From Candidatus Dormiibacterota bacterium (GTDB lineage: Bacteria; Chloroflexota; Dormibacteria; Aeolococcales; Aeolococcaceae), in contig CAVPXI010000013.1 in the NCBI GenBank assembly GCA_963709585.1, positions 1 through 64,000 of the forward strand: DNA of 64,000 nt, in the 5' to 3' direction. Below the pieces are notes generated by a model. The model worked only from the letters and a program-made list of their open reading frames with translations. It was not told where the DNA came from and ran no database searches. Shown here piece after piece: positions 15,339 through 53,809 of this stretch; positions within the stretch are counted from its first letter, which is position 1, and each line of letters begins with the position of its first letter. The position numbers were made by a program, and so were the translations under genes.

Positions 15339-15487
15339 AACCCGTAACTTCAACCTTGGGAAGGTGCCGGTACGTTGCTGAATTCAGGCGTACCCGACAA
15401 CGGACATTTGCTGGTCCCTGTTACCCTTTGGAGCCCTTACGCTGGTTCACTCATATCGACCTGAGGGACGTCCCTGTTGATGCGACA

Positions 15488-15558
15488 GGGCCTAACGTCA
15501 TCTCTTGGTAGTGAGTAAGTACCCCACTCAGCGCTGGTGTGCTGGTGACACTCGGCAC
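15488..15558. promoter_or_regulatory. DevR/DosR-box-like sites upstream of flavodoxin gene
   Basis: GGGCCTAACGTCAT (15488) and GTGACACTCGGCAC (15545) versus the DevR core GGGACTWWAGTCCC. Confidence 0.55.
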
Positions 15559-15607
15559 TTGGCTCGCGATACGCGCCCGGCACAAGATTGGCGCGGAGGT
15601 AAGAACC

Positions 15608-16154
15608 ATGACGACACTCGTCGGGTACGCAAGCCGATACGACGCGAACTCGGGGAATCGCTGAGAGAATTGCCGACACGCTGGCGTCGCTTGGACACCC
15701 AGCGCAGGCGCGACCACTCCAGGCGGTCGGCGATCTCGCCAGATACGACGCCTATGTTATTGGCAGCGCTGCCTATATGGGGTCCTGGCTCAGGGAGGCC
15801 AGGGAGTTCGTGCGGATCAACCAGAAGTTGTTGGCCACGCGCCCCGTATGGCTATTCAGCAGTGGGCCGCTCGGCACTGCAACCACGGATGCGAAAGGGC
15901 GCGACGTGCTGGCAACCTCGGAGCCGAAGGAATTCGCCGAATTTCGCGAGGCCGTGAGCCCGCGTGCGACTCGGGTGTTCTTCGGAGCGCTGAATCCGCG
16001 CAAGCTGAGCTTCTCACATCGAGCGGCCCAACTCATTCCGGCTGCGCGGGTGCTCATGCCGGAAGGCGATTTTCGGAACTGGGCGGACATCGATGCATGG
16101 GCCACTAGCATCGCTTCGGAGTTGACCGAAGTGTTGGAGCCGGCGCTCACTTAG
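15608..16154 (+). CDS. Flavodoxin-domain protein (HemG-like; frameshift at 15646-15651)
   Basis: MTTLVGYASRYDA/TRGIAERIA...YDAYVIGSAAYMGSW...VWLFSSGPLG...GDFRNW; GGAGG RBS. Confidence 0.88.
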
Positions 16155-16274
16155 CAGCTATTCCAGAAGATCACGCTCGGGGTTTGCCGGGCTGGCACCG
16201 CCTCGCATGGATTCATCGACCAGCAAATCGGTCTTTCTGGGTTTCCGGGATCCGGCTGCCGACGCATCTGGTGG

Positions 16275-17702
16275 CTAGCGCACGTCAATCGGCTCAAACC
16301 GCGCAGTGAAGTGGCGCAGCGCGGGCGGTTCATCGACGATCCGATATCCGGGAAGGTCGGCGGCGCGCGATGCCACATCCTCGCACGCTGCAACGACGTA
16401 GTCGATGTGGCTCTGTGTGTAGGTCCGCCGCGGGATCGCCAGCCGAACGAGGTCCATATCCGCAGCCCGCTCCGAACCGTCGGGTTGCCGCCCGAACATC
16501 ACCGTGCCTATCTCGCAACTGCGGATCCCACCCGTCTCATACAGAGCGACTGCCAGCGCCTGACCCGGATAGTGCAAAGGATCGATGTGCCGTAGCAGCG
16601 CCCGTGCGTCGATGTAGATCGCGTGACCGCCTGGAGGCTGAATGATCGGGATGTCAAAGTGAGTCAGTGCCTCACCGAGATACGCGGTCGAGCGGATCCG
16701 GTAGCGCAGGTAGTCGTGCTGCACCACCTCGTGCAGGCCCTGGGCGATTGCCTCGAGGTCACGACCGGCCAGACCACCATATGTTGGGAACCCCTCCGTG
16801 AGGATGAGCAGGTTGCGACATTGCACAGCGAGCTCATCGTCATTCATCGCAAGCCAGCCGCCGATATTGGCGAGCCCGTCCTTCTTGGCACTCATCGTCA
16901 TGCCATCGACGAGGCTCGCCATTTCGCGGACGATGTCGCGCACCTCACGATCCTGCTGCCCCGGCTCTCGTTCGCGAATGAACCAGGCGTTCTCCGCGAA
17001 CCGGCACGCGTCGAGAAACAACGGAACACCATACTGGTCGCACACCTGACGCACCGCGCGCAGGTTCGCAAGCGAGACCGGTTGCCCGCCTCCCGAATTG
17101 TTCGTGACGGTGACGAATACGACCGGCACCGACCCCTCGCGGGCGGCAAGGAACGCTTCCAGCCGCTCAACGTCCATGTTGCCCTTGAAAGGATGCAACG
17201 CGGAGGGATCGTGCCCTTCACGCGCGGGCAGGTCCACCGCAAGTGCGCCCGTGAACTCGACATTGGCACGTGTGGTGTCAAAGTGGGTGTTGTTCGGTAC
17301 GCTCTTGCCCGGACCGCCGATGGCGGTGAAGAGGATCTTTTCGGCGGCTCTACCCTGGTGCGTTGGGATGATATGCCGGAAGGGGAAGAGGTCCTGGACC
17401 GCATCGAGGAAACGAAACCATGAAGGAGAGCCCGCGTAGCTCTCGTCACCGTGCTGCACGGCCGCCCACTGGTCGCGTGACATCGCGCCGGTGCCTGAGT
17501 TGGTGAGCAGGTCGATAAGGACGTCATCGGAATGCAGGGCGAAAAGGTTGTAACCGGCTGCCGCGATGGCGCCCCGTCGCTCCTCTTCCGTGGTCATTCG
17601 CAGTGGCTCCACGGAGTGGATGCGGAATGGTTCGATGATTGTGTCGAACTCTCGGGGCGGCAGCACGCGCGCAAACTCCCGCTCACGCACGGCACTCACC
17701 AC
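16275..17702 (-). CDS. tnaA: Tryptophanase (beta-eliminating lyase; tyrosine phenol-lyase not excluded)
   Basis: EPFRIHSVEP, GDESYAGS, THQGRAAE, FDTTRAN, MSAKKD (PLP Lys), EGFPTYGG, LRHFTARF. Confidence 0.88.
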   Translation of the reverse strand: MVSAVREREFARVLPPREFDTIIEPFRIHSVEPLRMTTEEERRGAIAAAGYNLFALHSDDVLIDLLTNSGTGAMSRDQWAAVQHGDESYAGSPSWFRFLDAVQDLFPFRHIIPTHQGRAAEKILFTAIGGPGKSVPNNTHFDTTRANVEFTGALAVDLPAREGHDPSALHPFKGNMDVERLEAFLAAREGSVPVVFVTVTNNSGGGQPVSLANLRAVRQVCDQYGVPLFLDACRFAENAWFIREREPGQQDREVRDIVREMASLVDGMTMSAKKDGLANIGGWLAMNDDELAVQCRNLLILTEGFPTYGGLAGRDLEAIAQGLHEVVQHDYLRYRIRSTAYLGEALTHFDIPIIQPPGGHAIYIDARALLRHIDPLHYPGQALAVALYETGGIRSCEIGTVMFGRQPDGSERAADMDLVRLAIPRRTYTQSHIDYVVAACEDVASRAADLPGYRIVDEPPALRHFTARFEPIDVR

Positions 17703-18513: not shown

Positions 18514-18909
18514 TCACCCGGAGCTCACAACAATGGTGCCGACCATTCCCGTGTGAATCGTGCACGAGTACTGATAGGTACCCGGGATGGTGAATTTCAC
18601 CTCCCAAACTCCCCCACCCGCAAGCACCGGATCGCTGATTGACGTGTCCTGAGGGAAGACGAGGTTGTGTGTCACTGATCCGATGTTCTTCCACTCGATG
18701 ATCTCGTCGACGGTCGCATTCTGCACTGCTGGATCGAACGTGTTCTGATCGGTCGCTGAGATGGTCACTACGGCCGCGCCGAGGTTGCCTCCTGCGATTC
18801 CTACCGCCCGTGAACTCGTGGATACACTCGGGGATATCGCACCGCCACCACACGCTGCCACGCCAAGGGGTAGCGGCGCCAGGCCAGCGAGTAGTCGAGC
18901 GCTCATCAT
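18514..18909 (-). CDS. Plastocyanin/cupredoxin-like copper-binding lipoprotein
   Basis: Lipobox VAAC; THN and YSCTIHTGM type-1 Cu ligands. Confidence 0.85.
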   Translation of the reverse strand: MMSARLLAGLAPLPLGVAACGGGAISPSVSTSSRAVGIAGGNLGAAVVTISATDQNTFDPAVQNATVDEIIEWKNIGSVTHNLVFPQDTSISDPVLAGGGVWEVKFTIPGTYQYSCTIHTGMVGTIVVSSG

Positions 18910-18991
18910 CTTCGATGCGGTCCTGGCTTCTTTAGCAGGGGTCCGCATCATCCGCAACGAACCTGGCCGGCGGGTACGTCTCGGGGGTCGG

Positions 18992-19273
18992 TCACTCTCC
19001 CTCGTCCCCAGGAAAGAAGTCGTCCAGTCCTGCATCGAGATCGGCGCAGCGGTTGCACAACTGGCGCCCATCCGTGCCAGGCACGGCATAACCGTCCTGT
19101 TTGATCCTTTGGCCATGGACGCAGTCACCACGATCGTGATAGACGCCCCGTTCTCTCTGCGGGTATGTAAGGGAATCCGTGTGGAACGGGTGAACCTTCA
19201 GCGTGAGCTTGAAGTCGTTCGGCGCGCTGTCCTCAGGGGGAAGGATTTCGGCGATATTTCTCGGGTTGATCAT
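18992..19273 (-). CDS. Small His/Cys-rich hypothetical protein
   Basis: GGAGG RBS before ATG at 19273; KVHPFHT...VYHDRGDCVHG...GRQLCNRC. Confidence 0.65.
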   Translation of the reverse strand: MINPRNIAEILPPEDSAPNDFKLTLKVHPFHTDSLTYPQRERGVYHDRGDCVHGQRIKQDGYAVPGTDGRQLCNRCADLDAGLDDFFPGDEGE

Positions 19274-19627
19274 CGTTGCCTCCACAGTGAGCACTTGGTT
19301 CGGCTGGATAGACGGTTCGAAAGAGCGGAACGATTCATTCGATCTGAACAGGTCTATCGTGTAACCCGGCGTCCATATTCGACAGAGGCGAAGGTCCCTA
19401 AGTCCAAAGGGCCGTTGGCTGGTCGCCGACGCCCGCCGAAGGGATCGGTTCCCCGGGATCCCGCCTTCATTCCTGCGCCAAGGGCTTGGGCGCATTGAAC
19501 CGGCTGATTGGTGACCTTCGACCCTAGCGGCTTGCGGATTTCTCGCCGGATGATCGTGATGCCGCCGGCGACAAGACGGGGCGGTCCGGAGAGCCTCCCG
19601 GAAGCTCGCGTCGGAGCACCCTAGGTT

Positions 19628-19897
19628 GTGAAAAAGTACGACGAGTTGCAGAGCCGGGAGACGCTTCCCGCATCGTGTCCACACGGAAACGACGAACGCT
19701 CGCCCGTCCGCGTCGATGAGCCCGTCCTCTGCCCGTATTACGAGGAGACGGTCGCTGGCTGTCGCCACTACCGCGCGAAATCCGAGCACGGTGACTTCCC
19801 GGACGCTGCCGAGTGCCGGTGGGTTGTCGTTGTCAGTCTGTCGAGCCATCAGCGCCAGCGCATCTGCGGGCGCCCTGGAGCCCAAACCGCACCCTAG
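19628..19897 (+). CDS. Possible small Cys-rich protein
   Basis: CPHG, CPYY, GCRHY, ECRW; DevR-like box at 19511 upstream; no family recognised. Confidence 0.4.
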   Translation: MKKYDELQSRETLPASCPHGNDERSPVRVDEPVLCPYYEETVAGCRHYRAKSEHGDFPDAAECRWVVVVSLSSHQRQRICGRPGAQTAP

Positions 19898-20068
19898 GAC
19901 CAGTGCTGCGCGTCGCCTTCCCCGGCGGCGGTTTGGCCATGAACGCGGCGACCCGGCGCGGCGGGAAAAGGAAGCGCGTAAGCCACGCACGCAGAGGCAT
20001 TTGTCCCCCAGATTCGAGCCAAGATGCTCTATCCAAGCTGGGCGGCGTGGACGGATCGTAGACGCGCG

Positions 20069-20650: not shown

Positions 20651-21091
20651 TCAGCGCGTAACCATCGCGAACCGACTGACAGAGTTCTCGGGATCGTCTC
20701 GATGCTCTGCACAGGCGGCCGCCAGCTCGTTGCGCAGCCCGTCGACGGCGCCGTGAAGCGGCTGAGACATCAACGGATCCTCGGCATTGGCTTCGAGCCG
20801 CCACACCAGCTCTTGCACCTCGATGAGCACTTCGAGTGCCACGTGAGGAACCAATCGCATGGCGGCGGACACACTGAGCCGCGACCGCACGCTACCGTCC
20901 ACAAGCCACCATCCCAAGCCGCGGCGCCAATCCTCCTCCAAATGGATGAACCGATCGCCACCACAAAAGATGTCAACACTCGGCGTCACATTCGGCACTC
21001 GCAGTATGCCCCGAACGTCAATGTCGTCCTTGATCACCTTGCTCCTCGGGTTCATCGAGTTACGTCCCATCAACGGTGTGTTACACCCCAC
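20651..21091 (-). CDS. Hypothetical protein
   Basis: Co-directional ORF downstream of DUF779 gene, plausible composition; no family recognised. Confidence 0.4.
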   Translation of the reverse strand: MGCNTPLMGRNSMNPRSKVIKDDIDVRGILRVPNVTPSVDIFCGGDRFIHLEEDWRRGLGWWLVDGSVRSRLSVSAAMRLVPHVALEVLIEVQELVWRLEANAEDPLMSQPLHGAVDGLRNELAAACAEHRDDPENSVSRFAMVTR

Positions 21092-21476
21092 GGGTCGCGC
21101 TTAGCAACGATACGTCGGCAGGACAGTAGAGGCGGGAGTGCGTCACGAAGTGTTGGCCCCTCCCGGCAGGGAGCGAGAAGCCTTCGGGGAGACCCTCGCT
21201 CACGTCGAGGATGAGTTGCGTATGCTTCCAGGCCGCGAACTGACGGTGGTCCATGTAGAAGGGACAACCACCAACCTGGCCGAGGAGCACGTCGTGGTCG
21301 CTCAACACGAACTCGCCGAGATCGAAACACATCGGGAGGCTGCCATCACAGCAGCCTCCCGACTGGAAGAACATGATCCGCCCTCGCTCGGCGACGAGAT
21401 CGCGAATCGCTTGCAGGGCCGCCGGCGTGGCGACCACACGCGCGGTTGATGTCGCCGCGGAGGTGTGATCGCTCAT
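21081..21476 (-). CDS. DUF779 family protein
   Basis: FFQSGGCCDGSLPMC...WKHTQLILDV; typical partner downstream of AldB/ExaC-type genes. Confidence 0.9.
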   Translation of the reverse strand: MSDHTSAATSTARVVATPAALQAIRDLVAERGRIMFFQSGGCCDGSLPMCFDLGEFVLSDHDVLLGQVGGCPFYMDHRQFAAWKHTQLILDVSEGLPEGFSLPAGRGQHFVTHSRLYCPADVSLLSATRGV

Positions 21477-21491: not shown

Positions 21492-23063
21492 CTAGAAGAA
21501 GCCCAGCGCCTTGGCGCTGTAGCTGACCAGAAGGTTCTTCGTCTGCGAGTAGTGCTCCAGCATCATCTGGTGATTCTCGCGGCCGACGCCCGAGATCTTG
21601 TATCCGCCAAAGGCGGCACCGGCAGGATACAGGTGGTAGCAGTTGGTCCAGACCCTGCCCGCCTTGATCGCACGGCCCATGCGATACGCTCGGCTCCCGT
21701 CACGGGTCCAGACGCCGGCGCCAAGACCGTACAGTGTGTCGTTGGCGAGTGCGATGGCCTCGGCCTCATCTTTGAACGTGGTCACCGCGAGCACCGGCCC
21801 GAAGATCTCCTCTTGGAACACGCGCATCTTGTTGTTGCCTTCCAGGACCGTGGGTTGAAAGTAGTAGCCGTTCGCGATCCCGGCATCGACGGTGGCGCGC
21901 TCGCCGCCGATCAGGCACTTCGCACCCTCCTCGCGTCCGATCTTCACGTAGGACTCGATCTTCTCGAGCTGTTGCGCGGAGTTCTGGGCGCCGATCATGG
22001 TGCTCACGTCGAGCGGATTACCCTGCTTGATCCCGCGAATGCGAGCGAGGCAACGCGCCATGAACCTGTCGTAGATCAACTCCTGGATCAGTGCGCGCGA
22101 CGGGCATGTGCAGACCTCGCCCTTGTTGAAAGCGTACAAGACCAAGCCTTCGATGGCCTTGTCAAGAAAGTCGTCGTCCGCGGCCATCACGTCGTCGAAG
22201 AAAATGTTCGGCGACTTGCCACCGAGTTCGACGGTCGACGGGATGAGGTTCTGCGCTGCGTACTGCATGATGAGCCGGCCAGTAACTGTCTCTCCGGTGA
22301 ACCCGATCTTTGCGATGCGCGGGCTGGATGCCAGCGCCTTGCCGATCTCACCACCTGGGCCTGTCACGATATTGATCACGCCCGGCGGCACGATCTCTTC
22401 GATGACCTCGGCCAGCTTGAGAATCGACCACGGCGTCGGGGATGCCGGCTTCAACACCGTGCAGTTTCCCGCCGCTAGAGCAGGAGCCATCTTCCAGGCA
22501 GCCATAAGGAGTGGGAAGTTGAACGGGATGATCTGTCCCACGACCCCAAGTGGCTCGTGGAAGTGATACGCCACTGTGTCCTTGTCGACCTCCGTGCTAC
22601 GACCTTCGAGCGAGCGGGTCGCGCCGGCGAAGTACCGGAAGTGGTCGACGGCGAGCGGCAGGTCCGCCGCGAGCGTCTCGCGTACTGGCTTTCCGTTCTC
22701 CCAACTCTCCGCCACCGCCAGCATCTCGATGTTGGCCTCGATTGCGTCAGCGATGCGGTTGAGAACCGCAGCGCGCTCGGTCAGTGAGGTCGCACCCCAG
22801 GCGTCCTTGGCGGCGTGTGCCGCGTCAAGCGCGAACTCGACGTCTTCCGCTGTTGATTTGGCGACCTCGCAGAACACCTTGCCGTTGACAGGGCTGATAT
22901 TCGGCATGTACCTGCCGAAAACCGGTGGCACCCAGCGCCCGCCGATGAAGTTGTCGTAGCGCGGCTTTACCTGGACCAGACTGCCGGGCTGACCCGGCTG
23001 CGTGTACACCCCGTTCTCTATGGGTTTGGTCTCAACGTGGACCGGCTCCATGGTGAGTGTCAT
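21492..23063 (-). CDS. aldB: NAD-dependent aldehyde dehydrogenase (AldB/ExaC/AcoD type)
   Basis: [38 protein letters not shown]; GGAGG RBS. Confidence 0.92.
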
Positions 23064-23236
23064 CGCCACACCTCCAGTTAACGGTTGTTGTCGTTTGGGA
23101 CCCACGTTAGAGGTACGGGTCTGGAGGACAAAAGAGCCGAACGTCACCAGTCGGGCAGGCACATCGTCAGATGCAACTCCCGGCGACGGTGGTCAGGAAG
23201 AAACATGCGACAAGCAGCCCTCCGGTGATCCCGGAC

Positions 23237-24277
<1,041 letters not shown>

Positions 24278-29010: not shown

Positions 29011-29045
29011 GCCTCGAGCCTACCCAGCCCGCCCTGCGAGGACCA

Positions 29046-39367: not shown

Positions 39368-39378
39368 TTGCTCTCCTC

Positions 39379-40661: not shown

Positions 40662-40753
40662 ACGGGACGGCCCATCGACCTTCTCGCGTGACGCCCAAAC
40701 GCGAGCCGCCACCGGTTCGTCGGCGCTCACGGCCGGGATATGATCCCGATCGG

Positions 40754-42365: not shown

Positions 42366-45068
42366 GCGACGCGAATCCACACGGATACCCATCGGCCTGG
42401 GCGATCGACGCGGTCCTCGCCGATGGTGGCACCGTGCACATACGACCCATCCGGCCGGATGACGCAACCGCGCATCGTGCATTCTTCGCACGCCAATCCG
42501 AGCAGAGCGTGTACTTCCGCTTCTTCGGTCCGCGGTCGGACCTGACCGATCGCGAAGTCACCCGTTTCACGACCGTCGATTACCACGACCGCATGGCCTT
42601 CGTCGCGTTCCTGCGCGAGGAGATGATCGCCGTCGGTCGCTACGATCGACTCGCCCACGGTGACGAGGCCGAGGTCGCCTTCGCGGTCGCCGACGCCCAC
42701 CAGGGCCGCGGGCTGGCCACGTTGCTGCTCGAGTATCTCGCGACCTACGCGGCGACCCAGGGCATCACCCGCTTCAGCGCCGACACGCTCATCGACAACC
42801 GGCGGATGCTCGAAGTCTTCCAGACCGCGGGGTTCCGGCGCGAGCGCCGATCCATCGAGTACGGCGTCGTCCACCTCGCCTTCGACATCGAGCCGACCGG
42901 CGAGTCACTGGCGGCGAGTGAGCATCGCGCCTGGACAGCCGGGGTCGCCAGCATCACCAGGATCCTCCAGCCGCAATCGGTCGCGGTCATCGGCGCGGGA
43001 CGCAACCCGCAGGGCATCGGACATGCGGTCGTCCGCAACCTCATCGACGCGGGCTTCCACGGACGGGTATACCCTGTCAACCCGAAGTCCGCCGAGCTGC
43101 TCGGCCTCGCATGCTCGCCGAGCGTCGAGGCGATCGACGGTCCGGTCGACCTCGCTGTCCTCGCCATCCCGGCTGCCCAGTGCATCGAAGCAGTTGACGC
43201 CTGCGGACGCAAGGGTGTGAAGGGGCTCGTGGTGATTACCTCCGGATTCGCGGAAGTCGGCGCCGACGGCATCGAATTGCAGCGCGAACTGCTGCTGCGA
43301 GCCCACCGCGGCGGTATGCGGGTGGTGGGCCCGAACTGCTTCGGGGTGATCAACACCGCGCCCGATGTGCGCCTCAATGCCACCTTCGCTTCGCGCGCGC
43401 CGGCTCACGGCGGAATCGCCTTCGCATCACAGTCCGGGGCGCTCGGCATCGCCGTCCTGGAGCAGTCGCTCAGCTCGGGGCTTGGGCTATCGAGCTTCGT
43501 CAGCATGGGCAACAAATCCGATGTCAGCAGCAATGATCTGCTCAGGTACTGGCAGCAGGATGGGCAGACCCGGGCGATCCTGCTCTATCTCGAGTCATTC
43601 GGCAATCCGCGGGCGTTCGCTCGAGTTGCCCCGGTCGTGTCGCGCACCACACCGATTGTGGTCGTGAAATCGGGTCGCAGCTCGGCAGGCACTCGTGCGG
43701 CCGCTTCGCACACGGCTGCGCTGGCGAGCCCCGACACCGTCGTCGACGCTCTGTTCCGCCAGGCAGGTGTGATTCGCGTCGACACCCTCGAGGAGCTGCT
43801 CGATTGCGGCCAGCTGCTGGCGAATCAGCCCGCGCTGGAGGGCCACCGCCTGGCCGTCGTCGGCAACGCCGGAGGAGCGGCGGTGCTCGCGGCCGACGCC
43901 TGCGAGGCTGCTGATCTGAGCGTTCCCGAATTCGATGCGGCAACCCAGGCGGCGCTTCGTGCCCTCGGCGGGCCGAATGCGGGTGTGAGCAACCCGGTCG
44001 ATCTCGGCGCGGGCGCGACCCCGGAGCTCTTTGAGGAGGCGCTGCGAATTGTCCTGGCATCGCCGTCGATCGACGGCGCCGTGGTGATTCTCGCCCCGGT
44101 TGCAACCGCCGATCCAGAGCAGGTCGCCCGTGCCGTCGTCGGAATCGATGCCGGGACGCGGCCGATCGTGTTCGTGCACCTCGGCGACAGTGCATCGCCC
44201 GGCGGCGCTCAGCCAGGGACCTCGAAAGGTACCGTCGTACGCGTTTCCGGAGCGTGCGGTTCGAGCGTTGGGACGCATCGCCGAGCATTCGAGCTGGAAG
44301 ACTCGACCTGTCGGTCACGCCCCACACCTGGCGGACGTCGACACCGATGCGGCGCGGACGATCGTCAAGACGTACCTCGCCGCGAACAGTGACGGTGGAT
44401 GGTTGTCACCGGACGAGGCGGTGGCGATAGTTGGAGCCTTCGGCATCGCGACACCCGGTGAGACCGCGGTCTCCTCGGCAGCCGAGGCGGCAGGTGCAGC
44501 ATCGCACCTCGGCTTCCCGGTGGCCCTGAAGGCCATGGGACCAACGATCCTGCACAAATCGGACGTCGGCGGCGTGCACCTCGACCTCAGCACTGCTGAC
44601 GATGTCGCGATGGCGTTCGCAGCGATGGCTCTCCACCTCGGCGACGCCATGGAGGGAGCGATCGTGCAGCAGATGCTGCGCGGCGTGGAGCTCATCGCCG
44701 GGGTGATCACCGATCCGCTCTTCGGCCCGGTGGTGATGTTCGGGAGCGGCGGGATCGCCGTCGAGCTCTTTGGCGACCGCGTGCTCCGCATCCTGCCGAT
44801 GACGGATCAGGACGCGCACGAGATGGTGCGGTCGATTCGCGGCGCGCCCCTGCTCTTCGGTCACCGCGGCACTCAGCCATGCGACGTGACCGCTGTGGAG
44901 GACGTGCTCTTGCGAGTCGCCCGCCTTGCTGAGGAGGTGCCCCAGCTCGCCGAGATGGACCTCAACCCGGTGATCGCATCCCCGGACGGCGCCGTGGCCG
45001 TCGACGTGCGAATCCGCCTGATGCCCTGGCGCCGCCACGCCGAGAGCGAGGTCCGGCGCCTGCGCTGA
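42362..45068 (+). CDS. GNAT plus NDP-forming acyl-CoA synthetase-like protein (Pat type; frameshift ~44198)
   Basis: GNAT HQGRGLAT; CoA-binding VYPVNP, GPNCFG, SQSG, AASHTAAL; ATP-grasp HKSDVGGV, EMDLNP. Confidence 0.88.
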
Positions 45069-45116: not shown

Positions 45117-45236
45117 CCGCCGAATGGGACTCCAACCCGGAATCTCATGGCGCGTGGCTCTGTCGTCAATACGCTCCTGGGGTCGAGCATGTGCATACCG
45201 GGTCAGATGGAACTCGAGAACAACAACAAAAGGGAT

Positions 45237-45836
45237 ATGGCCATGACAAACGGACTTCGTTGGCGGATCTTCGTCCTCCAGGTCGGACTGATCGGCATCC
45301 TCGCCTTCGTGAGCGGGTTCGCTTTCTGGGCGAGCAACTTCGCGACGTCGACCGTGCACGATCAGCTCGCCGCGCAGCAGATCTACTTCCCGGCTGCCGG
45401 CTCGACGGCTATCACCTCACTGCCGAAGGCGGATGCCGCGGCCATGACGCCGTACGCGGGCCAGGAGTTGCTCACCGGCCAGCAGGCTCAGGTCTACGCC
45501 AACAACTTCATCAACATCCATCTCGGCGAGATCGCTAACGGCAAGACCTACTCCCAGTTGAGCACAGAGGCCCAGGCCGCTCCCAACGACACCAAGCTCG
45601 CCGGCCAGGTGGCGACCATCTTCAAGGGCACGACGCTCCGCAGCATGTTGCTCAATGCCTATGGATGGTCTGAGATTGGCGTGTTCGCCGGCTACGCGGC
45701 CATCGGACTTGCCATAGCAGCGGTCGTCGTCCTTGGGGCCTTCCTCTTCGAGATCGTCCGCTGGCGCGAGACGGCCAATGCGGGACGGACCGCCCGCCCA
45801 GCAGCACAGCCGACGCCACTTCGGCAGCACGCGTAA
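45237..45836 (+). CDS. Two-TM membrane protein with extracytoplasmic domain
   Basis: TM, VHDQLAAQQIYFP...QAQVYANNFI.IHL...GKTYSQL...FKGTTLRSMLLNAYGW, TM. Confidence 0.78.
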   Translation: MAMTNGLRWRIFVLQVGLIGILAFVSGFAFWASNFATSTVHDQLAAQQIYFPAAGSTAITSLPKADAAAMTPYAGQELLTGQQAQVYANNFINIHLGEIANGKTYSQLSTEAQAAPNDTKLAGQVATIFKGTTLRSMLLNAYGWSEIGVFAGYAAIGLAIAAVVVLGAFLFEIVRWRETANAGRTARPAAQPTPLRQHA

Positions 45837-46093: not shown

Positions 46094-46669
46094 TCAGCGC
46101 AGATACGCCTCGATGACCGGAGCGACGCGTGACACCAGCTCCTCATTGCTCGCCGATGCCACCGCGTCAGCTTTCACCACGTGGCGGAGCATCGCGATAC
46201 CGATCAGCTGTGCAACCACCAGCGACGCCCGGAGTTGCCTGTCGGGATGGTCGATGAGCGGGCTCAGGGATGAAAGCATCGCCTGGCCCAGGAACTCCCT
46301 CAGCATCGTCGCCGCTCGCTCGCTGGATACCGCCGAGCGCACGAGCCCGAGCATCACGTCTCGGGTCTGCTCCTGATCCAACACGAGCAGGTATCGACGG
46401 ACGATCAGCTTGGCTGCCTCGGAAATGCTCACGCTGGCCAGCCCGTCGAACATCGACATCGAACTCATCGTGACCTCGAGTGCAGCGAGAAACAGCGCCT
46501 CCTTCGTACCGAAGTAATGGACGACGAGAGCGGGGTCGACATCAGCCTGTTTGGCGATGCTCCGCAGGGAGGTGGCGTCGTACCCACGGGCGCCGAACGA
46601 ACGCCGTGCGACCAGCAGGATGTCGTCTCGCGTCTGCGGCCACCCGGGACGGCGGCCCGAGCGGCTCAA
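46094..46669 (-). CDS. TetR family regulator
   Basis: GRRPG...TSLRSIAKQADVDPALVVHYFGTKEALF. Confidence 0.92.
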   Translation of the reverse strand: MSRSGRRPGWPQTRDDILLVARRSFGARGYDATSLRSIAKQADVDPALVVHYFGTKEALFLAALEVTMSSMSMFDGLASVSISEAAKLIVRRYLLVLDQEQTRDVMLGLVRSAVSSERAATMLREFLGQAMLSSLSPLIDHPDRQLRASLVVAQLIGIAMLRHVVKADAVASASNEELVSRVAPVIEAYLR

Positions 46670-47530
46670 CGGCCTGCTCCCGCTGAGACTATGCTGACGA
46701 ACGCCTCCTCGAGGTTCGCGGGCACCGTCGCCACGTCGCCTCGGAGGTGGTGCCGCGCGAGCGCCTCAACGACGTGCTGGGGCGATGCGGGCACTCGGAG
46801 GACGTCGCCTTGCACCTGAACGATGAGCCCCTCCGCGTCGAGCGCCGAGAACGCCTTCTGCCAGCTGTCGCACCGTGCCTCAACCACATGACGGTCACCA
46901 ATCACCTCGGCCACCGTGCCCTCGGCGACGACGCGTCCGCCGGCCATGACGACGAGCCGGTCGCATTGCTCGGCCTCCTCCATGTTGTGGGTCGTCACCA
47001 GGACGCCGGTACCGTGTTCGGCGCTGTCCCGGATGTCCTGCCACAGCCGAGCCCGGCTGAGCGGCCCAACCCCGGAGGTGGGCTCGTCGAGCACGAGCAG
47101 TTCAGGCTGGTGAGAGAACGCCACGGCAAAGGCGACCCGCCGCTGCAAACCCAGTGGGAGCGCCCCGACGAGTTGATCCCTCGCGTCACGGATGCTCGGC
47201 GCCAGCGCGAGACGAGTCGAATGAAAGGCGGACGCTGTGAACGTCCAATTCTCCTCGACCGTCAGGTCGTCGTAGAGGCCGAGCGTTTGCGGCACGTAGC
47301 CGATCCGGCGCCGCGTCGCCATCGACGGCGGTGCACCGAAGAGCGAGACCTCGCCCTGCGACGGCCGCACGAGCCCGAGCAGGAGTCGTATCAACGTGGT
47401 CTTGCCGGCACCGTTCGCACCGACGAGCCCGACGACCTCGCCGCCGCCGACGCTGGAACTCGCTGAAGTCCACGGCGGTGAAGTCACCGAAGCGCATGGT
47501 CACGTCACGGGTTTCAGCGAACGCAACCAT
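46666..47530 (-). CDS. ABC transporter ATP-binding protein (frameshift at 47465-47470)
   Basis: MRFGDFTAVD, GANGAGKT, LLVLDEPTSGV, TTH. Confidence 0.9.
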
Positions 47531-47534
47531 CGAT

Positions 47535-48354
47535 CTAACTCTTCTGCTCGTCCGATAGAGCGGCGATGACTACGGCATCCTCGAAGTCGGGCTGCAAGGA
47601 TCCGCCCCGGGTGGGAGCTCCAGCGACGGAGCCCAGAACTCGCCAGGTTTTGCCCCAACGCCAGGAGAGCCCCTGCGGCTGTTCCGTCGAACTCAACGAC
47701 GCCCAACTTGCCGGGAACCGCGGCAATGATGTCGGACGGCGACCCGATCGCGATGGACCGTCCCTGTTCCAACAGGACAACAGTTGACGCGCGATGGGCC
47801 TCGTCGACATAGGTGGTCGCGACGACGACGGCGCTGCCTTCTGCTGCGGCTCCGGAGATGAGCCGCCACAGCTCTGCGCGGCTCACTGGATCGACTCCGG
47901 TGGTCGGCTCATCGAGCACGAGCATGGCTGGGCGATGCAGGAGCGCCATCCCGACCGCGAGCTTCCGCTGCATGCCACCCGAAAGCTGCCCGCCGAGGCG
48001 GGTCCGAGCGTCCGCCAGGCCGATTCTTTCGAGCAATTCGGTCGATCGCCTTGCCAACTCGGGTCCGCGCACGCCGTACGCACCGGCGGAAAACGCCACG
48101 TTCTCGTCGACAGTGAGGTCGACATAAAGTCCAGCCGTGGCGGGGATGTAGCCGATCTCCTTCTTCGCAGGTCGCCGAGCGACGCCGTCGCTCAGACGGA
48201 CAAGTCCAACCAGCGCTCGCAGGAGCGTGGACTTACCCGCGCCATCTCCACCGACGACGATGCTCACTGTCGAAGGCTCGACCGGCAGGGTCAGGTGGTC
48301 GAGAGCGGTTCGCGACCCGAACACAACGCTCGCGTCCTCGAGCCCCCAGGTCAT
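47535..48354 (-). CDS. ABC transporter ATP-binding protein (frameshifts in C-terminal part)
   Basis: GGDGAGKST, LSGGM, LDEPTTGVDP; C-terminal QPDFEDAVV in another frame. Confidence 0.88.
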
Positions 48355-49436
48355 GCGGCCACCGCCTTCGAATCTGCCTCCGTCGTGCGTCCTCGCCCGG
48401 CGCTCGGCGCAAGGTCGCGTCGGAACCGAAGCACGGCCAACCCGAGAACGACGACCGCCATTCCTGCAAGAACGAGCAGGGGCCCCCACAGAGCGGTCAG
48501 TGGCGCGGCTTTCAGCATCACCCCGCGACTGATGTCGATGAAGTACTTGAGCGGGAGGACGTAGGCGATCCACTGAACTCCGCTCGCCATCGACGAGACG
48601 GGGAATATCAGCCCTGACAAGAGGATCTGGGGAACGACGAACATGATGGCGAGCTGGATCGCCTGGCCCTGATTCTGCGACACAGTTGAGACCAGGACAC
48701 CCATGCCCAGGGTCACGAGCAGCAACAGGAGGGCGCCGAGCGCGAAGGTGGCGACGTTGCCGACGAACGGCACTCCGAAGAGCAGCATGCCGATGACCAC
48801 GATCGCAATGAGATCCAGAGCTGCCAGCAGGAGATACGGGACGATCTTTCCGAAGATGACGTCCCAGGGCCTGAATGGCATGACCGCGAGCTGCTCGATG
48901 GTCCCCGTTTGCCGTTCCCGAACGATCCCGAGGCTTGTGATCAGGGTGCCGATGAAGAGCAGGATCAGACCCGTGAGCCCAGGAATCATGATCCAGGAGG
49001 TTGTGAGGTTCGGGTTGTAGAGGATCTGGAGGGCGATGGCGGGTGCCGCCGCGCCATTCGCCTTGGCCGCCTGAGCCATGTGCGCGAACGCACTCTGCGC
49101 GGCTTCCACGGCGAAGAGTTGAGTTCCATCCATCAGCGCCGAGATCTGGGTCGGTCCAGTGACCACCGCGACCACCGCCGTTCCATCCTGGAGGCGACTC
49201 TGAGCCAGAGACCTCCCTCCGTTCGGATCGATCTCCACGACGTCAAACGGCGCACGGAGGTGGGCGGCGACAGCCTCTGCCTGCGGGCCGACCACGACGG
49301 TCGTGACCTTGGAGACGTCGAACCTGGCCGCGTAGCCAAAGACCACGAGCAGCAGGACGGGCAGCACGATCAGCAGCGCGAGGGTTCGCCGGTCTCGCTT
49401 CAGCTGTCGGAACTCCTTGACGATCATCGTCCACAC
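48351..49436 (-). CDS. ABC-2 type exporter permease
   Basis: KEFRQLKRDRRT, IVRERQTGTIEQL, GKIVPY, LLSGLIFP. Confidence 0.92.
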   Translation of the reverse strand: MWTMIVKEFRQLKRDRRTLALLIVLPVLLLVVFGYAARFDVSKVTTVVVGPQAEAVAAHLRAPFDVVEIDPNGGRSLAQSRLQDGTAVVAVVTGPTQISALMDGTQLFAVEAAQSAFAHMAQAAKANGAAAPAIALQILYNPNLTTSWIMIPGLTGLILLFIGTLITSLGIVRERQTGTIEQLAVMPFRPWDVIFGKIVPYLLLAALDLIAIVVIGMLLFGVPFVGNVATFALGALLLLLVTLGMGVLVSTVSQNQGQAIQLAIMFVVPQILLSGLIFPVSSMASGVQWIAYVLPLKYFIDISRGVMLKAAPLTALWGPLLVLAGMAVVVLGLAVLRFRRDLAPSAGRGRTTEADSKAVAA

Positions 49437-49735
49437 GGCTCGCCTCCTAATTCACTGACTGTTGAAGTCTACGCGTGCAGAATTCTGGACTTCAGCCGCC
49501 ACACGGCGAGGTGCCGGTCCACGCCCGACGTCGACGTCACCCCAATCGCGCGCTCACTCCTGGCACTGTCCGAACACCATCGCGATGGATGGATCCGGGT
49601 CGTAGCGGGATCGCCGCTCGGCACGACCAGTTAGGGTCAATCGCCGGTCGATCAGGTGACAAACGACTGTGGTCGCGCGATGGCCCAGCCTGGTTTCCTT
49701 GACCTACGGGTCAGTGATTACCGGAGATTCGAGCG

Positions 49736-50806
49736 ATGCAAGTGCTCAGCCTTGACGAGAGATTGGGGCAACGTTCTGTCCGCCTTCGGAACATCCTGCT
49801 TGCCACCGACGGTACCCCGGCTGCTCACCTGGCGCTGGGTGCCGCGGCGGACCTGGCGAGACGGTCCGGGGCGTCACTTCATCTGGTCACGGCGTACGAA
49901 TTCGCTCCATCTAGCGTGCTGGCGTATGCGCCCTATATCGGGCCGAACAGCGCATGGGATTCGCTCGAAGCTGACGCCCGAAGGTTGCTCGACGACGAGC
50001 GGGATCGCGTGGTGGCGCTCGGCGCGACCGTCGGGAGCCTTCACGTCGCACGCGAACCGGCTTTCAGCGCCGTGATGGACGTGGCCGAGATGGTCGAGGC
50101 CGATCTCGTCGTTCTCGGTAGCCGCGAGCTCAACGGCCTGAAGCGTCTCGTGGTTGGAAGCGTCTCGGAGCATGTCGTGCACCACGTGCATCGCCCCGTG
50201 CTGATCGTGAGGGGGGGTGAAGGTACCTGGCCGCCGGCGCATGTGATCGTCGGCTTCGACAACAGCAGTGGCGCCAGATGCGCGGCGCGGTTCGCCGCCA
50301 CGATCACGCACCTCTACAAGGATCTCCCCATCGAATTGGTTGAAGCCGACGCAGAGCTGTCGGTGGCCGCGGATCGGTTTCTCAGCCCCGACGATAGAGA
50401 ACATGTCGACGCCGAGAGCCTGTTCGAGTACGCCAGGAGCCTGGACACGATCGCCGGCCGCACCGTCGAGACGGCCGTCGTGGTCGGTGATCCGGCCGAC
50501 GCTCTGAATGCGACCGGCAGCCAGCGACCCGACACGAAGCTCATCGTCGTGGGCAGTCGCGATCTCGGTGCAGTGCGACGCTTCTTGCTCGGCAGCGTGT
50601 CGACCAAGCTCCTGCACTCAGGGCACGCAGCGCTGCTGGTTGTGCCGGAGCACGCGACCCAGGGCTGCACCAACGAAAGCGATGACAAGCCAACCAACTC
50701 AATTTGGCAGGACGGCGCGTCCGCTTTGCGACATCTGTCCGCCCTGGGTGCGCGACGCGCTGTCCCTGACAAAGGTGGCGTGGAGCTTCGTATCAGTTCG
50801 ACGTGA
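49736..50806 (+). CDS. Tandem-domain universal stress protein
   Basis: ILLATDG...LVVLGSR...GSVSEHV and second domain IVVGSR...GSVSTKL; DevR-like boxes at 49634 and 49656. Confidence 0.9.
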   Translation: MQVLSLDERLGQRSVRLRNILLATDGTPAAHLALGAAADLARRSGASLHLVTAYEFAPSSVLAYAPYIGPNSAWDSLEADARRLLDDERDRVVALGATVGSLHVAREPAFSAVMDVAEMVEADLVVLGSRELNGLKRLVVGSVSEHVVHHVHRPVLIVRGGEGTWPPAHVIVGFDNSSGARCAARFAATITHLYKDLPIELVEADAELSVAADRFLSPDDREHVDAESLFEYARSLDTIAGRTVETAVVVGDPADALNATGSQRPDTKLIVVGSRDLGAVRRFLLGSVSTKLLHSGHAALLVVPEHATQGCTNESDDKPTNSIWQDGASALRHLSALGARRAVPDKGGVELRISST

Positions 50807-50868: not shown

Positions 50869-52044
50869 CTAGCAGCTGTTGATGCAGGTTTGTGCTGCAT
50901 ACGTTGAATTGATAAGCGTTGCCATACCAGACGTCGCAACTGAGTAGGTCTTGTGATCGCCCAACTCGGTTGCAATCAAGATGCCGTCCGGCGTCCAGAG
51001 CGTCGGGGTCAAGTTGCTGGCACCGGTGACAGTCACGACATAGCCGCTCGCCAGATCCAGCAGGACGAGCCGAGTACCCGATGCAGTGGGGCACAAGATG
51101 GAGACCGCTGCGAAGCTGGCATCCGCTGATAGCTGCACCCCTCCATTGATGCATCGCCGTGAGGTCAACCCCGAAATGCTGTAGTTGGTCTGCGTGCCGT
51201 CGGGTGCGATGACTCGAATCGCTGCTGACGAACCACCAAGTGAACAGACGATAGTCCCGTCGTCGACGATGTCTTCGAAATTGCAGTCGCTTCCGATGCG
51301 ACCTGCGAGACCAGTGGCCGCGCCCGTCGCAGGATCGATGAGGATCGCCGGTGAGATCGCCAACGTCGAGGGTTCGGCAGGACCGCCGCACGCGTTGTCG
51401 CCCTGCGCCACGATGCCGGCAGCCGTCCACGCCACAAGACTGACCTGCGTGACTCCCGCGCCGAACGACGCACTCACGATCTTCCTCGCTCCGTTGCCAT
51501 CGTCTGTGTACACGTCGAATACCGCTCGCGTTGACGATCCGCAGGCCGGCGCATCGGTCTGCACCGCCCAGGCCCATGCCTGACCATCATCGCGTCCGAT
51601 CACCGACGGAGAACCGACAACGTTCTTCTCGAGTGTTGTGAGGGTGCCATCCGACGATATCGCGACGATTGAAACCGGTCCGCCCGGCCCGCCGACCTGC
51701 TGGCCGTCAGTTCCAATCATTCGAGCGCCAAATGTGCCGGAGATCGCCAATGTCGGATAACCGCCGACGATGGGCCCCGATGGAATTGGACCAGTCGTCT
51801 GTCCGCTCGCCAGCATCAACACACCCGGGTCGGGGTCGTGGTCGGTGAATGCGACGAGGAGCGGCTCGAACGATGGACGTGTCGGTGTGGGAGACGCTGT
51901 CCCCCCGCCGGAACCGCTTGTCGGTGCCGTGGACGGCGTCGGTGCCGTCGATGGCGTCGGTGACCTTGATGGGGTCGTCGCCGCGCCGCAGGCTGCCAGG
52001 GCAGCTGCGCTGGCGATCAAAAGCGCGGCACGTTGGATCCGCAT
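50869..52044 (-). CDS. Secreted lipoprotein, Pro/Thr/Ser linker plus beta-rich domain
   Basis: Lipobox LAAC; PTPST repeats; DevR-like box at 52201. Confidence 0.75.
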   Translation of the reverse strand: MRIQRAALLIASAAALAACGAATTPSRSPTPSTAPTPSTAPTSGSGGGTASPTPTRPSFEPLLVAFTDHDPDPGVLMLASGQTTGPIPSGPIVGGYPTLAISGTFGARMIGTDGQQVGGPGGPVSIVAISSDGTLTTLEKNVVGSPSVIGRDDGQAWAWAVQTDAPACGSSTRAVFDVYTDDGNGARKIVSASFGAGVTQVSLVAWTAAGIVAQGDNACGGPAEPSTLAISPAILIDPATGAATGLAGRIGSDCNFEDIVDDGTIVCSLGGSSAAIRVIAPDGTQTNYSISGLTSRRCINGGVQLSADASFAAVSILCPTASGTRLVLLDLASGYVVTVTGASNLTPTLWTPDGILIATELGDHKTYSVATSGMATLINSTYAAQTCINSC

Positions 52045-52535
52045 CGCCCAAACTCCTCTTAACTAGATGTGAAACCGCTGCATCTTCGTTTGGGTTATGC
52101 GTCGAAGCCTTCGCCGGCCTGGCATGGCAATCGCGGACATCTCGCGCCTCCCTTGTGCTCCTAGTTCTGCCGGTCTATCGCAGCGAAGGGCGTCGCGATA
52201 GGGCCGATGGTCACAACATTCGACCCGTCTTTAGGGCGAAGGATCGCCTCCCACTCCTGGTCAGCGCCAAACCGAAAGCTATTTCAGGATCGGTGCACTA
52301 GTAGGCTCGGGAAGCTACGGAGCCGCGTCCTTAGACGTCGGCTATCGCGTCGGAATCCGCTCGTGACCGTCGCGTCGCCATCCCGGACCTTCGGCTCGCA
52401 GTCCACACAGAGCGCGGATAGGAACCCGTCATCTCCGCCGAGCCGACACGAGGGCTGGAGCGGCACCACCCGCCGCGCAGCGCGGCCAGTCGGGTCCGGC
52501 GCCGCGGTGGGGAGACATGAACGGCGGTCATCGGT

Positions 52536-52772
52536 CTACGGCCGTTGACGGCCCTCCACCATCGCCCGAATAATGCCCACGACGTTGCCAAGCTCCCAGA
52601 GAGCAAGGGCACCCCAGGCCGCGCGACGCGACATCCGCTCGGCCTTGACGGCGCGTGCTATGAAGACGCCTGCCGCCGAGGAAGCCGCCGCGACCCACGC
52701 CCCCGCAAGGCGAAGGTGATGCGCGATGAAGGTCGCTGCGGCGAGCCACCGTGATGTCATTGGAGCATCCAT
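52536..52772 (-). CDS. Small hydrophobic hypothetical protein
   Basis: AGGAGGT RBS before ATG at 52772; no family recognised. Confidence 0.45.
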   Translation of the reverse strand: MDAPMTSRWLAAATFIAHHLRLAGAWVAAASSAAGVFIARAVKAERMSRRAAWGALALWELGNVVGIIRAMVEGRQRP

Positions 52773-52968
52773 CGTGTGCACCTCCTGTCGTTGTTGCGCG
52801 GCCTCCCGATTACCCACCGCCGCATCCGGTCGCACCACGGCTAGTCGGACCGCCCCCACGGTGGGGTGAGACGCAAGCTCTCGACATCTTTCGGGCAGAT
52901 CAGGCTGGTGCAAGAACGCCACAGCAAATACGACCCGTCCGTTCGCACCGAGGAGCCGGTCGACAGAG

Positions 52969-53580
52969 CTACCGAATCAGTTCTAGCACGCCGGCTGCGA
53001 CCTCATCGATATGATCGCCGGTCCGATCCGACCAAGTCTGCCTCGGCGTAGGCGCGGTTCGTTGATCCCGTCCAATGGCGCCGATTGCTTCGAAGTGCAT
53101 CGCCAAAGGAATCAACGCAAAGGGACGCCGTGCTTTGTGGCTCAACTCGTGAGCAACACTCCCGAGGAAGAGATCCTCCATCGTGCTGTGTTGCCCATTG
53201 CCGACCACGATGAGGTCTGCGTCCTCGGTGTCGGCGACGTGCAATATCCCTGTTGCTGGATGCCCTTCGACAACGACGATCCGATGCTTGACGTCCTTGC
53301 TGGTCAGGGGCCCAAACAACTCCTTCTTGACATGAGATCGCACATCGTCGCCCAGGTAGTCGAACTCCCGCAGGCGAACGTCCGTCACTGTCGTACCGCC
53401 AGAGGCGCCGATAGGCTTCAGCACATGCACCGCGATGATCTCGGCGCCGCGGGATGCTGCCTCCTGGATTGCCCATTCGAGTGCGGCGTCCGATGCCGCC
53501 GACCCATTCACTCCCACAACGATCTTCTGCGTGCTCACAACGTCCGCCTTGGCATTTGAGGATTGTTCGCTCAGGGTCAT
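52969..53580 (-). CDS. Universal stress protein
   Basis: KIVVGVNGS...ADLIVVG...LGSVAHEL; DevR-like box GAGGCGTTGGTCCC at 53608. Confidence 0.88.
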   Translation of the reverse strand: MTLSEQSSNAKADVVSTQKIVVGVNGSAASDAALEWAIQEAASRGAEIIAVHVLKPIGASGGTTVTDVRLREFDYLGDDVRSHVKKELFGPLTSKDVKHRIVVVEGHPATGILHVADTEDADLIVVGNGQHSTMEDLFLGSVAHELSHKARRPFALIPLAMHFEAIGAIGRDQRTAPTPRQTWSDRTGDHIDEVAAGVLELIR

Positions 53581-53809
53581 CTAATCGCCAGGTCGGAGGC
53601 CTGTCAAGAGGCGTTGGTCCCGACTTATCATCACGCCTGCCGTGTCGCGCCGCGATGGCTGGCCCGCTCCGCACGCCCTCGACCGGCTGCGCCAGCTGCG
53701 GCAATGCAGCGGCATCCTCACCGAGACACCGATTGGGCTCCGCAAACGAGGGCCTTCGTACTCATCCAAGCCTCCGGCGGCCACGCCGTCGCGCGTGCCT
53801 GACCTGCCG

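Follow-up and report, generated by a model that had tools for sequence, protein, structure and literature searches.

In Mycobacterium smegmatis, the group 3b hydrogenase Hyh (Hyd3) is controlled by DosR, induced by hypoxia, and evolves H2, according to two reports (10.1101/2023.09.11.557286; 10.64898/2026.10.24.761498). A related arrangement was analysed here in Candidatus Dormiibacterota, on the first 64 kb (the window) of a 212-kb contig, C13, belonging to a 3.52-Mb genome bin of 24 contigs (G000), and positions 15339-53621 were read as a compact DosR-type DevR/DevS regulon block of Dormibacterota that has been relocated, that here occupies a single 41-kb segment within a tRNA-Pro(GGG) repeat array, and that is not self-sufficient, a reading towards which we lean. 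Read from sequence, the block has in common with the M. smegmatis system a group 3b hydrogenase of four subunits linked to NAD(P), two-component signalling of the DevR/DevS type together with a DosR-like palindromic box, and universal stress protein (USP) and PNPOx-like genes. Unlike that system, its host is not actinobacterial and its large subunit HyhL is ~60% identical to those of the Mycobacterium loci; the hydrogenase operon diverges from the genes of a Por enzyme in which PorD forms one chain with an NfnB/GltD-type module, translation of devS is coupled to that of an SlPatA-type gene, and the box departs from the mycobacterial consensus. Within 10 kb of the 80 most similar group 3b loci of other species, DevR/DevS was present at 3, PorA at 7, a GltD-PorD protein at 6, and a PatA-like gene at 8. 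DosR control of a group 3b Hyh being already known, what stands out here is the wiring of Por and Nfn to Hyh, the devS-patA coupling, and the surrounding array. The uncultured Dormibacterota are abundant in soils and have been known chiefly for aerobic scavenging of trace gases, and no paper linking them with group 3b hydrogenases or DosR was found in the search listings consulted.

Counterparts of the single components have been described elsewhere. Sulfhydrogenase I of Pyrococcus furiosus/Thermococcus (9NEZ, 9E15, 5YXY) has the same beta-gamma-delta-alpha set, with a large-subunit match at E 2.1e-65, whereas all four subunits of the block score far under the archaeal equivalog cut-offs and stand in a bacterial context of hypoxia regulation, not of sulfur metabolism. 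Phenylglyoxylate dehydrogenase PadEFGHI, a five-subunit 2-oxoacid oxidoreductase that reduces NAD+, and NfnAB resemble the Por alpha, beta and gamma subunits with their GltD/NfnB-like flavoprotein able to pass electrons to NAD(P)+; in contrast to both, the ferredoxin-like delta part is fused here to the flavoprotein in a 561-aa chain, and Pad models match PorC, PorA and PorB with lower scores than the Por models. As in Streptomyces lividans PatA (SlPatA), a GNAT domain precedes an NDP-forming acyl-CoA synthetase-like body, but the nearest matches of that body are true ADP-forming ligases (4XYL, E 2.7e-87), the aligned phosphohistidine-loop His is retained, and the gene overlaps the devS stop.

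Gene families were assigned by Pfam searches on 101 candidate open reading frames (ORFs) and NCBIfam searches on 36, together with PDB sequence searches, and the coordinates of all features are collected in Table 1. For the first GAF domain (GAF-A) of DevS, the best PDB matches were the heme domains of DosT (2VZW) and DevS (2W3D), with E values of 4.6e-36 to 8.7e-34, and the aligned His and Tyr, which we take to mark the heme-ligating site of GAF-A in DevS, are retained, so that this domain is predicted to bind heme. DevR, after its best match to M. tuberculosis DevR, has VraR as its next PDB match (E 3e-40), and its aligned stretch with K179, K182 and N183 is identical to that of M. tuberculosis DevR, residues to which PMC5999986 assigns roles as DNA contacts in DosR.

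Candidate DevR sites were modelled with a Gibbs sampler on 24 upstream regions of seven block genes from six relatives, with the bin itself and the relative G019 left out, and one 16-mer was recovered in 24 of 24 regions, at matching distances to orthologous genes. This 16-nt box has a left half GTGAC/GGGAC, an A/T-rich centre and a right half GNCCC, resembles the DosR box, and is described here as a putative variant of its mycobacterial form. Scanning of the whole bin at 14 bits or more gave 60 matches, 16 of them in 15339-53621, where 0.65 were expected; at 16 bits or more, 10 of 22 matches fell there. Among 1459 sliding windows of 38.3 kb, 971 were empty and the best of the bin, with 15 matches, were all here, and 200 shuffles of 15339-53621 contained a mean of 0.58 boxes and a maximum of 4. 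At 12.5 bits or more, the window held 18 boxes, all within 15486-53621. The boxes precede most transcription units of the block, the gap gene included, and a palindromic box upstream of ORF 45147-45836 is conserved in 5 genomes. The block had been called self-regulated in a preliminary description made from the sequence; the box enrichment, the conservation of boxes in relatives and the one box between devR and devS-patA support this in silico, and regulon control of the block by DevR binding to these boxes is predicted. A second cluster of DosR-like boxes, with 6 of the 60 bin matches at 14 bits or more, lies outside the window at C13:66000-90500, among genes for DsrE/DsrC-like proteins, two P-type ATPases (one with a hemerythrin domain), an HtrA-like protease, PspC, a flavodoxin-like protein and DUF4389.

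The hydrogenase operon lies on one strand in the order Fer4_22, NAD_binding_1, Oxidored_q6 and NiFeSe_Hases, which is the four-subunit order, and the best NCBIfam matches of all its subunits are sulfhydrogenase subunits. The best PDB match of HyhL was the sulfhydrogenase I alpha subunit 9NEZ at 224.6 bits, compared with 174 for Mvh, 134.6 for Frh, 126.3 for Hox, and less than 100 for group 1 enzymes, scores on which hyhBGSL is classified, by sequence, as a group 3b [NiFe]-hydrogenase. CxxC motifs define the nickel-binding sites of [NiFe]-hydrogenases, and the HyhL translation has both the N- and the C-terminal Cys pairs, plus a 10-residue tail beyond the His. The nearest named relatives of HyhL, at 83% identity, are metagenome-assembled genomes (MAGs) labelled Candidatus Dormibacteraeota, which places the organism in the Dormibacterota and not among the actinobacteria. 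One relative, G012, has three HyhL matches (contigs C5, C15 and C12; 91-93% identity to the query), which could reflect duplication or mixed strains.

On the opposite strand, porCAB and then the GltD-PorD gene run divergently from hyhB across 110 nt. In the 561-aa GltD-PorD protein, PorD models match residues 500-559 and the best PDB matches are of the NfnA/NfnI type, plus a PFOR delta subunit; delta exists only as this C-terminal domain. For the alpha, beta and gamma subunits, Por models score best with the equivalog cut-offs not reached, and VOR, oxalate and phenylglyoxylate models also match. The N-terminus of porA is displaced by a 1-nt indel at ~28265 relative to G019. Outside the Dormibacterota, an Acidimicrobiales MAG (L042) and a Ca. 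Binatia MAG (L050) show the same layout, with hyh divergent from porCAB and the GltD-PorD gene, and this arrangement may be a recurrent functional module.

The GTG start of patA overlaps the devS stop (GTGA). As assembled, a single open frame at 40688-44392 runs through GAF, HisKA_3, GNAT and CoA-ligase domains with ATP-grasp in another frame, from which DevS and Pat could be taken as truly fused in a 1234-aa sensor-kinase/acetyltransferase, with the ATP-grasp part as a separate gene; we give this next to no credence, since the canonical DevS C-terminus and stop are found in the +1 frame, leading into the stop/start overlap. The assembly carries extra bases at 42317 (devS) and 44198 (patA), both of which are missing in the complete relative G019, where devS (555 aa) and patA (901 aa) are separate ORFs. 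Contigs from 4 public runs (3 studies) likewise do not have the extra bases, which are the sole indels over the 4.5 kb compared; at 42317 the full depth lacks the base in all four runs, and at 44198 the full depth does so in three runs and 27.3/52 in the fourth, X1. Single-base indels relative to G019 recur in GA(A)CTC and GAGT(T)C contexts, at 28265, 39194, 39320, 40237, 42317, 44198, 45211 and 47467-47691, and split porA, the PNPOx-like gene, and gltB on contig C7; they are read as systematic base-calling error, possibly linked to DNA methylation. The 1234-aa ORF was rejected as an assembly artefact, a fusion being refuted for the population sampled.

Two roles may be proposed for PatA. Its GNAT part matches chains 4NXY and 4U5Y, which we take to be the SlPatA GNAT domain, with E ~2e-38. 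To our knowledge, classical Pat lacks the phosphohistidine, and its retention here in a body closest to ADP-forming ligases makes ATP-yielding acetate formation by PatA possible. The GNAT domain and the overlap with devS suggest a second role, in which PatA may set DevR activity, because K182 acetylation abolishes DNA binding by M. tuberculosis DosR according to PMC5999986.

Combining these features, a drop in O2 would lead the heme-GAF kinase DevS to phosphorylate DevR, which would bind the boxes and switch on its own operons together with the other genes of the block. Pyruvate and reductant would come from malic enzyme, tryptophanase and the second GAPDH, Por would convert pyruvate to acetyl-CoA and CO2 with electrons passing via the PorD domain to the fused NfnB/GltD-type module and on to NAD(P)H, and the group 3b hydrogenase would re-oxidise NAD(P)H, making H2. 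From acetyl-CoA, the ACD part of PatA would yield acetate and ATP, or PatA would acetylate target proteins, or both. Of the route from malate, tryptophan or triose phosphate to H2 proposed in the preliminary description, the enzyme set stands, fitting a path from pyruvate to acetyl-CoA and NAD(P)H and then H2 through a PorD fused to an NfnB/GltD-type module; the substrate of Por is less firmly placed, given the scores below cut-off and the matches to related 2-oxoacid enzymes.

The latter point, the sulfhydrogenase names of the best-matching solved enzymes, the presence of a second [NiFe]-hydrogenase in the bin on contig C16, with which H2 cycling is possible, and the bidirectionality of group 3b enzymes would all suit a hydrogenase that mainly takes up H2 and supplies reductant, or acts as a sulfhydrogenase, with Por-GltD as a pyruvate synthase or other 2-oxoacid enzyme, in H2-driven or sulfur-linked redox balancing. 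This we consider quite improbable: malic enzyme, tryptophanase, GAPDH and aldehyde dehydrogenase all yield pyruvate or NAD(P)H, which fits reductant disposal, and pyruvate synthesis at ferredoxin level driven by NAD(P)H would be uphill. DosR-type control together with the USPs also parallels M. smegmatis, in which Hyh evolves H2 in hypoxia according to 10.1101/2023.09.11.557286.

The block lies between repeats that the preliminary description took for a private att-like pair. The repeats are real, but are two of 4 copies in the window and of 16 on the contig, which make up a tRNA-Pro(GGG) array. Position 15339 is the first base past the repeat copy at 15197-15338, and the right copy lies 2.7 kb beyond the end of the block as previously drawn. 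An Rfam tRNA match (29.2 bits) was obtained in the left repeat at 15220-15279(-), and ARAGORN found no tRNA in the window. Using nhmmer, 16 units in the same orientation were found on C13 with an intact tRNA-Pro(GGG) at the end, and 5 further units on contig C14 (13-72 kb), in an array that likewise ends at an intact tRNA-Pro(GGG), the second of the bin. Each unit, of ~165-240 nt, consists of an arm with repeated ATTCCA-like words, the tRNA from anticodon stem to 3' end, and a conserved 3' flank, and the two types of 3' flank match the flanks of the two tRNA genes. The array on C13 reaches 211.5 kb, its 16 units spanning 200 kb with segments of 1.8-41 kb, and repeats of tRNA-Pro type are present in 39 of the 40 genus relatives searched. 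The 121 further ORFs on C13 code for regulators, transporters, and enzymes with redox or stress functions.

In its layout, the unit resembles a complete attP (arm, core, arm), of the kind found at internal junctions between elements that integrated one after another, and serial site-specific integration is the most probable origin of the array. Tandem accretion of integrative and integrase-less cis-mobilizable elements at tRNA genes is reportedly treated in a review, and pSAM2 is known to integrate into tRNA-Pro. The array resembles such accretion in its same-orientation repeats of a tRNA 3' part, the intact tRNA at one end, the attP-like internal junctions, and the lack of an integrase in most segments; it differs in its larger scale, its occurrence across the genus, and its cargo of regulator, transporter and redox genes. 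With respect to a tRNA-integrated island, repeats copying the tRNA 3' part are present, and an integrase beside the att site was not found. In the array of G019, a tyrosine integrase ORF starts 73 nt from a repeat copy (L131:9380-10457; G019 C1 ~2205380-2206457) and is a candidate for the array-building enzyme. An integron was considered and rejected: there is no integrase by the tRNA end, where a der fragment follows the tRNA, the segments measure 1.8-41 kb with genes on both strands, and the repeats are tRNA-derived. Two array segments, at window 12457-14648 and C13:124180-126419, hold a paralogous module of an FAD_binding_3 monooxygenase and a divergent TetR_C_13 regulator, the window copy of which also carries a tautomerase.

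To place the block among relatives, 80-100 kb around it were compared in six of them. In G019, the same 29.6-kb order is found, ~90% identical over 21093-50663, at 10-38 kb from a tRNA-Phe 3' end, with no tRNA-Phe direct repeat around the block. In G006, G010 and G023, block genes stand in other orders at an ftsH/DAHP-synthase locus; the corresponding ftsH locus of the bin, on C7, keeps ftsH and has no block genes. In G021, the block is at a C11-like locus, and in G002 in a mosaic region. The cluster was counted in at least four flank contexts, two of them adjoining tRNA genes. Since it occurs at other loci in relatives, the block is probably relocatable and has been moved.

The same comparison can be set against a simpler history, in which the block is a normal DosR-regulon neighbourhood, passed on vertically within a plastic stretch of chromosome and at no time moved as a unit, and the repeats belong to an unrelated array that happens to surround it. 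Of 24 genus relatives, 19 carry DevS orthologues, which also occur in the sister family (40-45% identity; the counts for that family cover G027 and G036, two unpublished genomes), one cluster locus is common to three relatives, the gene order within the cluster differs between relatives, the block has no G+C anomaly, and no recombinase, integrase or transfer gene was found among the 121 further ORFs of C13. We nevertheless regard this history as unlikely, because HyhL turned up in no more than 12 of the 24 genus relatives, because the flank contexts are at least four, two of them beside tRNA genes, because C13 and G019 share their 29.6-kb order and ~90% identity at different tRNAs, and because the C7 locus of the bin keeps ftsH without the cluster.

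The distribution of DevS also disposes of the earlier claim that the block carries its own sensor. The block is instead a module of a lineage-wide DevRS system and not a self-contained island, the maturation genes and an integrase being elsewhere. Its portability, likewise claimed before, stands to the extent that the block occurs at four or more other loci in six relatives, and falls short in that repeats are absent there, C13 has no integrase, DevS is lineage-wide, and the hyp genes lie elsewhere.

Several observations weigh against reading the block as a relocated, DevR-controlled array segment. None of the six relatives has repeats of tRNA-Pro type near the block, a PF00589 search found no integrase on C13, no recombinase is among the Pfam matches of the window, and the best match in the bin to the integrase of the G019 array is 30% identical, no close orthologue being found. 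The G+C content of the block (61-68%) is not distinct from that of its flanks. As for control, since orthologous promoters served to train the box model, 5 of the 18 window boxes are expected by descent, the other 13 not being orthologous to training promoters; the strict mycobacterial core GGGAC-N4-GTCCC, allowing 2 mismatches at most, shows no enrichment in the window (49 found, 64 expected); and three boxes at 19.4-20.0 kb fall where no gene could be called. Among the 19 genus relatives with DevS, 7 have no HyhL match, although all 12 HyhL carriers have DevS, and devS and hyhL are on different contigs in G021 and G002. The hyp maturation genes are outside the block, with HypD only on C16, and the direction of H2 flux in a bidirectional enzyme class is taken by analogy from M. 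smegmatis alone. Finally, the tRNA-Pro-der end of C13 (C13:211509-212147) is 86.7% identical to C14:71629-72268, giving two diverged copies of this locus in the bin, compared with a single one in each of four relatives with long contigs, G019, G003, G006 and G046; it is thus possible that C13 derives from a sister strain binned together with the rest, and any statement about the same genome is weaker for it. This doubt touches the empty C7 site, HypD and the second hydrogenase, and leaves comparisons with relatives unaffected.

A DosR-type regulon that includes a fermentative hydrogenase suggests that Dormibacterota may survive loss of O2 as M. smegmatis does, and DosR-controlled H2 fermentation would then extend beyond Actinomycetota. 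The block offers a testable electron path, from Por through the Nfn/GltD module to the group 3b hydrogenase, along with defined candidate DevR sites, and the devS/patA stop/start overlap makes the known DosR K182 acetylation switch testable in a new lineage. Through the tRNA-Pro array, the genus may have a general means of gaining and reshuffling adaptive gene sets. A more far-reaching version, conceivable but doubtful, is that the tRNA-Pro(GGG) array serves the genus for gene capture, with dozens of segments that lack an integrase, are joined by full attP-like units and are shuffled in trans by a rare tyrosine integrase, and that whole regulatory modules travel through it, here a DosR-type regulon. 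In this regulon, devS would be hard-wired to PatA, which would acetylate the K182-equivalent of DevR and so tie DevR activity to acetyl-CoA status, as a metabolic feedback on the fermentation module.

Table 1. Positions in the 64-kb window of the repeats, genes and DosR-like boxes, with the match or observation that supports each.
Feature	Position	Strand	Basis or remark
Repeat, tRNA-Pro(GGG) array	11727-11892		further copy in window
Left att-type repeat	15178-15346	-	conserved non-tRNA arm, D-arm-less 3' part of tRNA-Pro(GGG), conserved 3' flank
DosR-like boxes at Flavodoxin_5-like gene	15486, 15545
Flavodoxin_5-like gene	15505-16154	+	split into two frames in assembly; PF12724 on 15777-16154, profile positions 55-129/145
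Tryptophanase (tnaA-like)	16275-17702	-	NF009709, 666.7 bits (cut-off 285); PF01212
Small blue-copper protein, plastocyanin/amicyanin-like	18514-19131	-	PF00127, E 4.1e-8
DosR-like boxes without confident gene call	19383, 19511, 19992 (within 19383-20007)		16.9, 18.7, 16.8 bits
DUF779 protein, usual partner of ExaC-type aldehyde dehydrogenases	21081-21476	-	PF05610, E 3.3e-37
Aldehyde dehydrogenase, ExaC (acetaldehyde dehydrogenase) type	21492-23162	-	NF050026, 895.6 bits (cut-off 900)
DosR-like box upstream of exaC	23132-23147		18.8 bits
gap, type I GAPDH, extra copy	23237-24244	-	TIGR01534, 440 bits
GltD/NfnB-like NAD(P)H oxidoreductase with C-terminal PorD (2x[4Fe-4S])	24526-26211	-	NF009410, 755.6 bits (cut-off 516)
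porB, TPP-binding beta subunit	26157-27167	-	NF008819, 324.7 bits (under cut-off 405)
porA, alpha subunit	27179-28285	-	PorA_Arch model positions 56-385/387
porC, gamma subunit	28417-29010	-	TIGR02175, 191 bits (cut-off 81)
DosR-like box in 110-nt porC/hyhB gap	29044-29059		18.0 bits; conserved in G019, G006, G002
hyhB, sulfhydrogenase beta-like, Fer4_22	29120-30267	+	Pfam, NCBIfam
hyhG, FAD/NAD(P)-binding gamma subunit	30394-31560	+	Pfam, NCBIfam
hyhS, small (delta) subunit	31446-32351	+	best NCBIfam matches sulfhyd_HydD/ShyD
hyhL, predicted group 3b [NiFe] large subunit	32348-33652	+	best NCBIfam matches sulfhydrogenase alpha (ShyA, HydA)
Hydrogenase maturation endopeptidase	33571-34149	+	TIGR00072, 99.1 bits (cut-off 47)
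NAD-type malic enzyme	34095-35867	-	NF010052, 808.6 bits
USP gene 1	35864-36421	-	Pfam
DosR-like boxes upstream of USP gene 1	36420, 36530, 36553
Cytochrome b (N-terminal domain)-like membrane protein	37974-38793	-	PF13631/PF00033; start 38793 read from sequence
DosR-like box upstream of cytochrome b-like gene	38905-38920		18.0 bits
PNPOx-like gene (Pyridox_ox_2, PF12900), directly downstream of devR	38950-39388	-	two frames in assembly
devR, NarL/LuxR-type response regulator	39379-40053	-	best PDB match M. tuberculosis DevR 3C3W, E 7.3e-60
DosR-like box between devR and SRPBCC-devS-patA operon	40110-40125		15.9 bits; conserved in G019, G006, G010, G023
Small ORF upstream of devS	40170-40661	+	weak SRPBCC/Polyketide_cyc2 match, E 7.5e-4, under cut-off
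devS, GAF-GAF-HisKA_3-HATPase_c	40688-42365	+	stop TGA 42363-42365
patA, SlPatA-type N-terminal GNAT and NDP-forming acyl-CoA synthetase (alpha, ATP-grasp parts)	42362-45068	+	Pfam, NCBIfam, PDB
Conserved protein of ~197 aa, two predicted membrane helices, no Pfam family	45147-45836	+	1970 homologues, alignment
TetR regulator, two ABC ATPases, ABC-2 permease	46094-49436	-	Pfam
DosR-like box upstream of tandem USP gene 2	49656-49671		17.9 bits; conserved in 5 relatives
USP gene 2, two USP domains	49736-50806	+	Pfam
391-aa protein, no family	50869-52044	-	PD40/TolB-like beta-propeller as atlas lead only
DosR-like box upstream of 391-aa ORF	52199-52214
USP gene 3	52969-53580	-	Pfam
Possible CBS-domain gene, sub-threshold	53581-54192	-	Pfam
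DosR-like box upstream of USP gene 3	53606-53621		ends at the end coordinate of the preliminary description
MFS transporter (-) and AraC regulator (+)	53999-56297	-/+	Pfam; same inter-repeat segment, without boxes
Right att-type repeat bounding 41-kb segment	56359-56529	-	same repeat family
Repeat, tRNA-Pro(GGG) array	59361-59530		further copy in window

With regard to the remaining gene content, 11 of the 12 items listed previously were found at their places by the Pfam, NCBIfam and PDB searches, the CBS gene being left with a sub-threshold match (E 5.9e-4, 20.6 bits against a cut-off of 24). Six-frame searches of the bin with PF00571 and PF01243 gave no match inside the window, and Pfam searches on 50 further ORFs (50.6-54.2 kb and other gaps) gave only weak CBS and weak SRPBCC matches. 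The PNPOx-like gene was detected with PF12900 only, once both of its frames were read; it has indels at 39194 and 39320 relative to G019, in which the intact orthologue scores E 1.2e-25. ORF 45147-45836 was also tried as the PNPOx-like gene and rejected, since it belongs to a family of small two-helix membrane proteins; many of its homologues are labelled Dormibacteria, and it always follows patA in the relatives checked. The true start of the ExaC-type aldehyde dehydrogenase is near 23000-23090. The gap gene is not in the G019 block, and the other gap gene of the bin is on C14. Outside the block, at window 9356-11577, a PAS ORF abuts a PAS-GGDEF-EAL ORF in another frame, and the two are probably one indel-split gene for cyclic di-GMP turnover.

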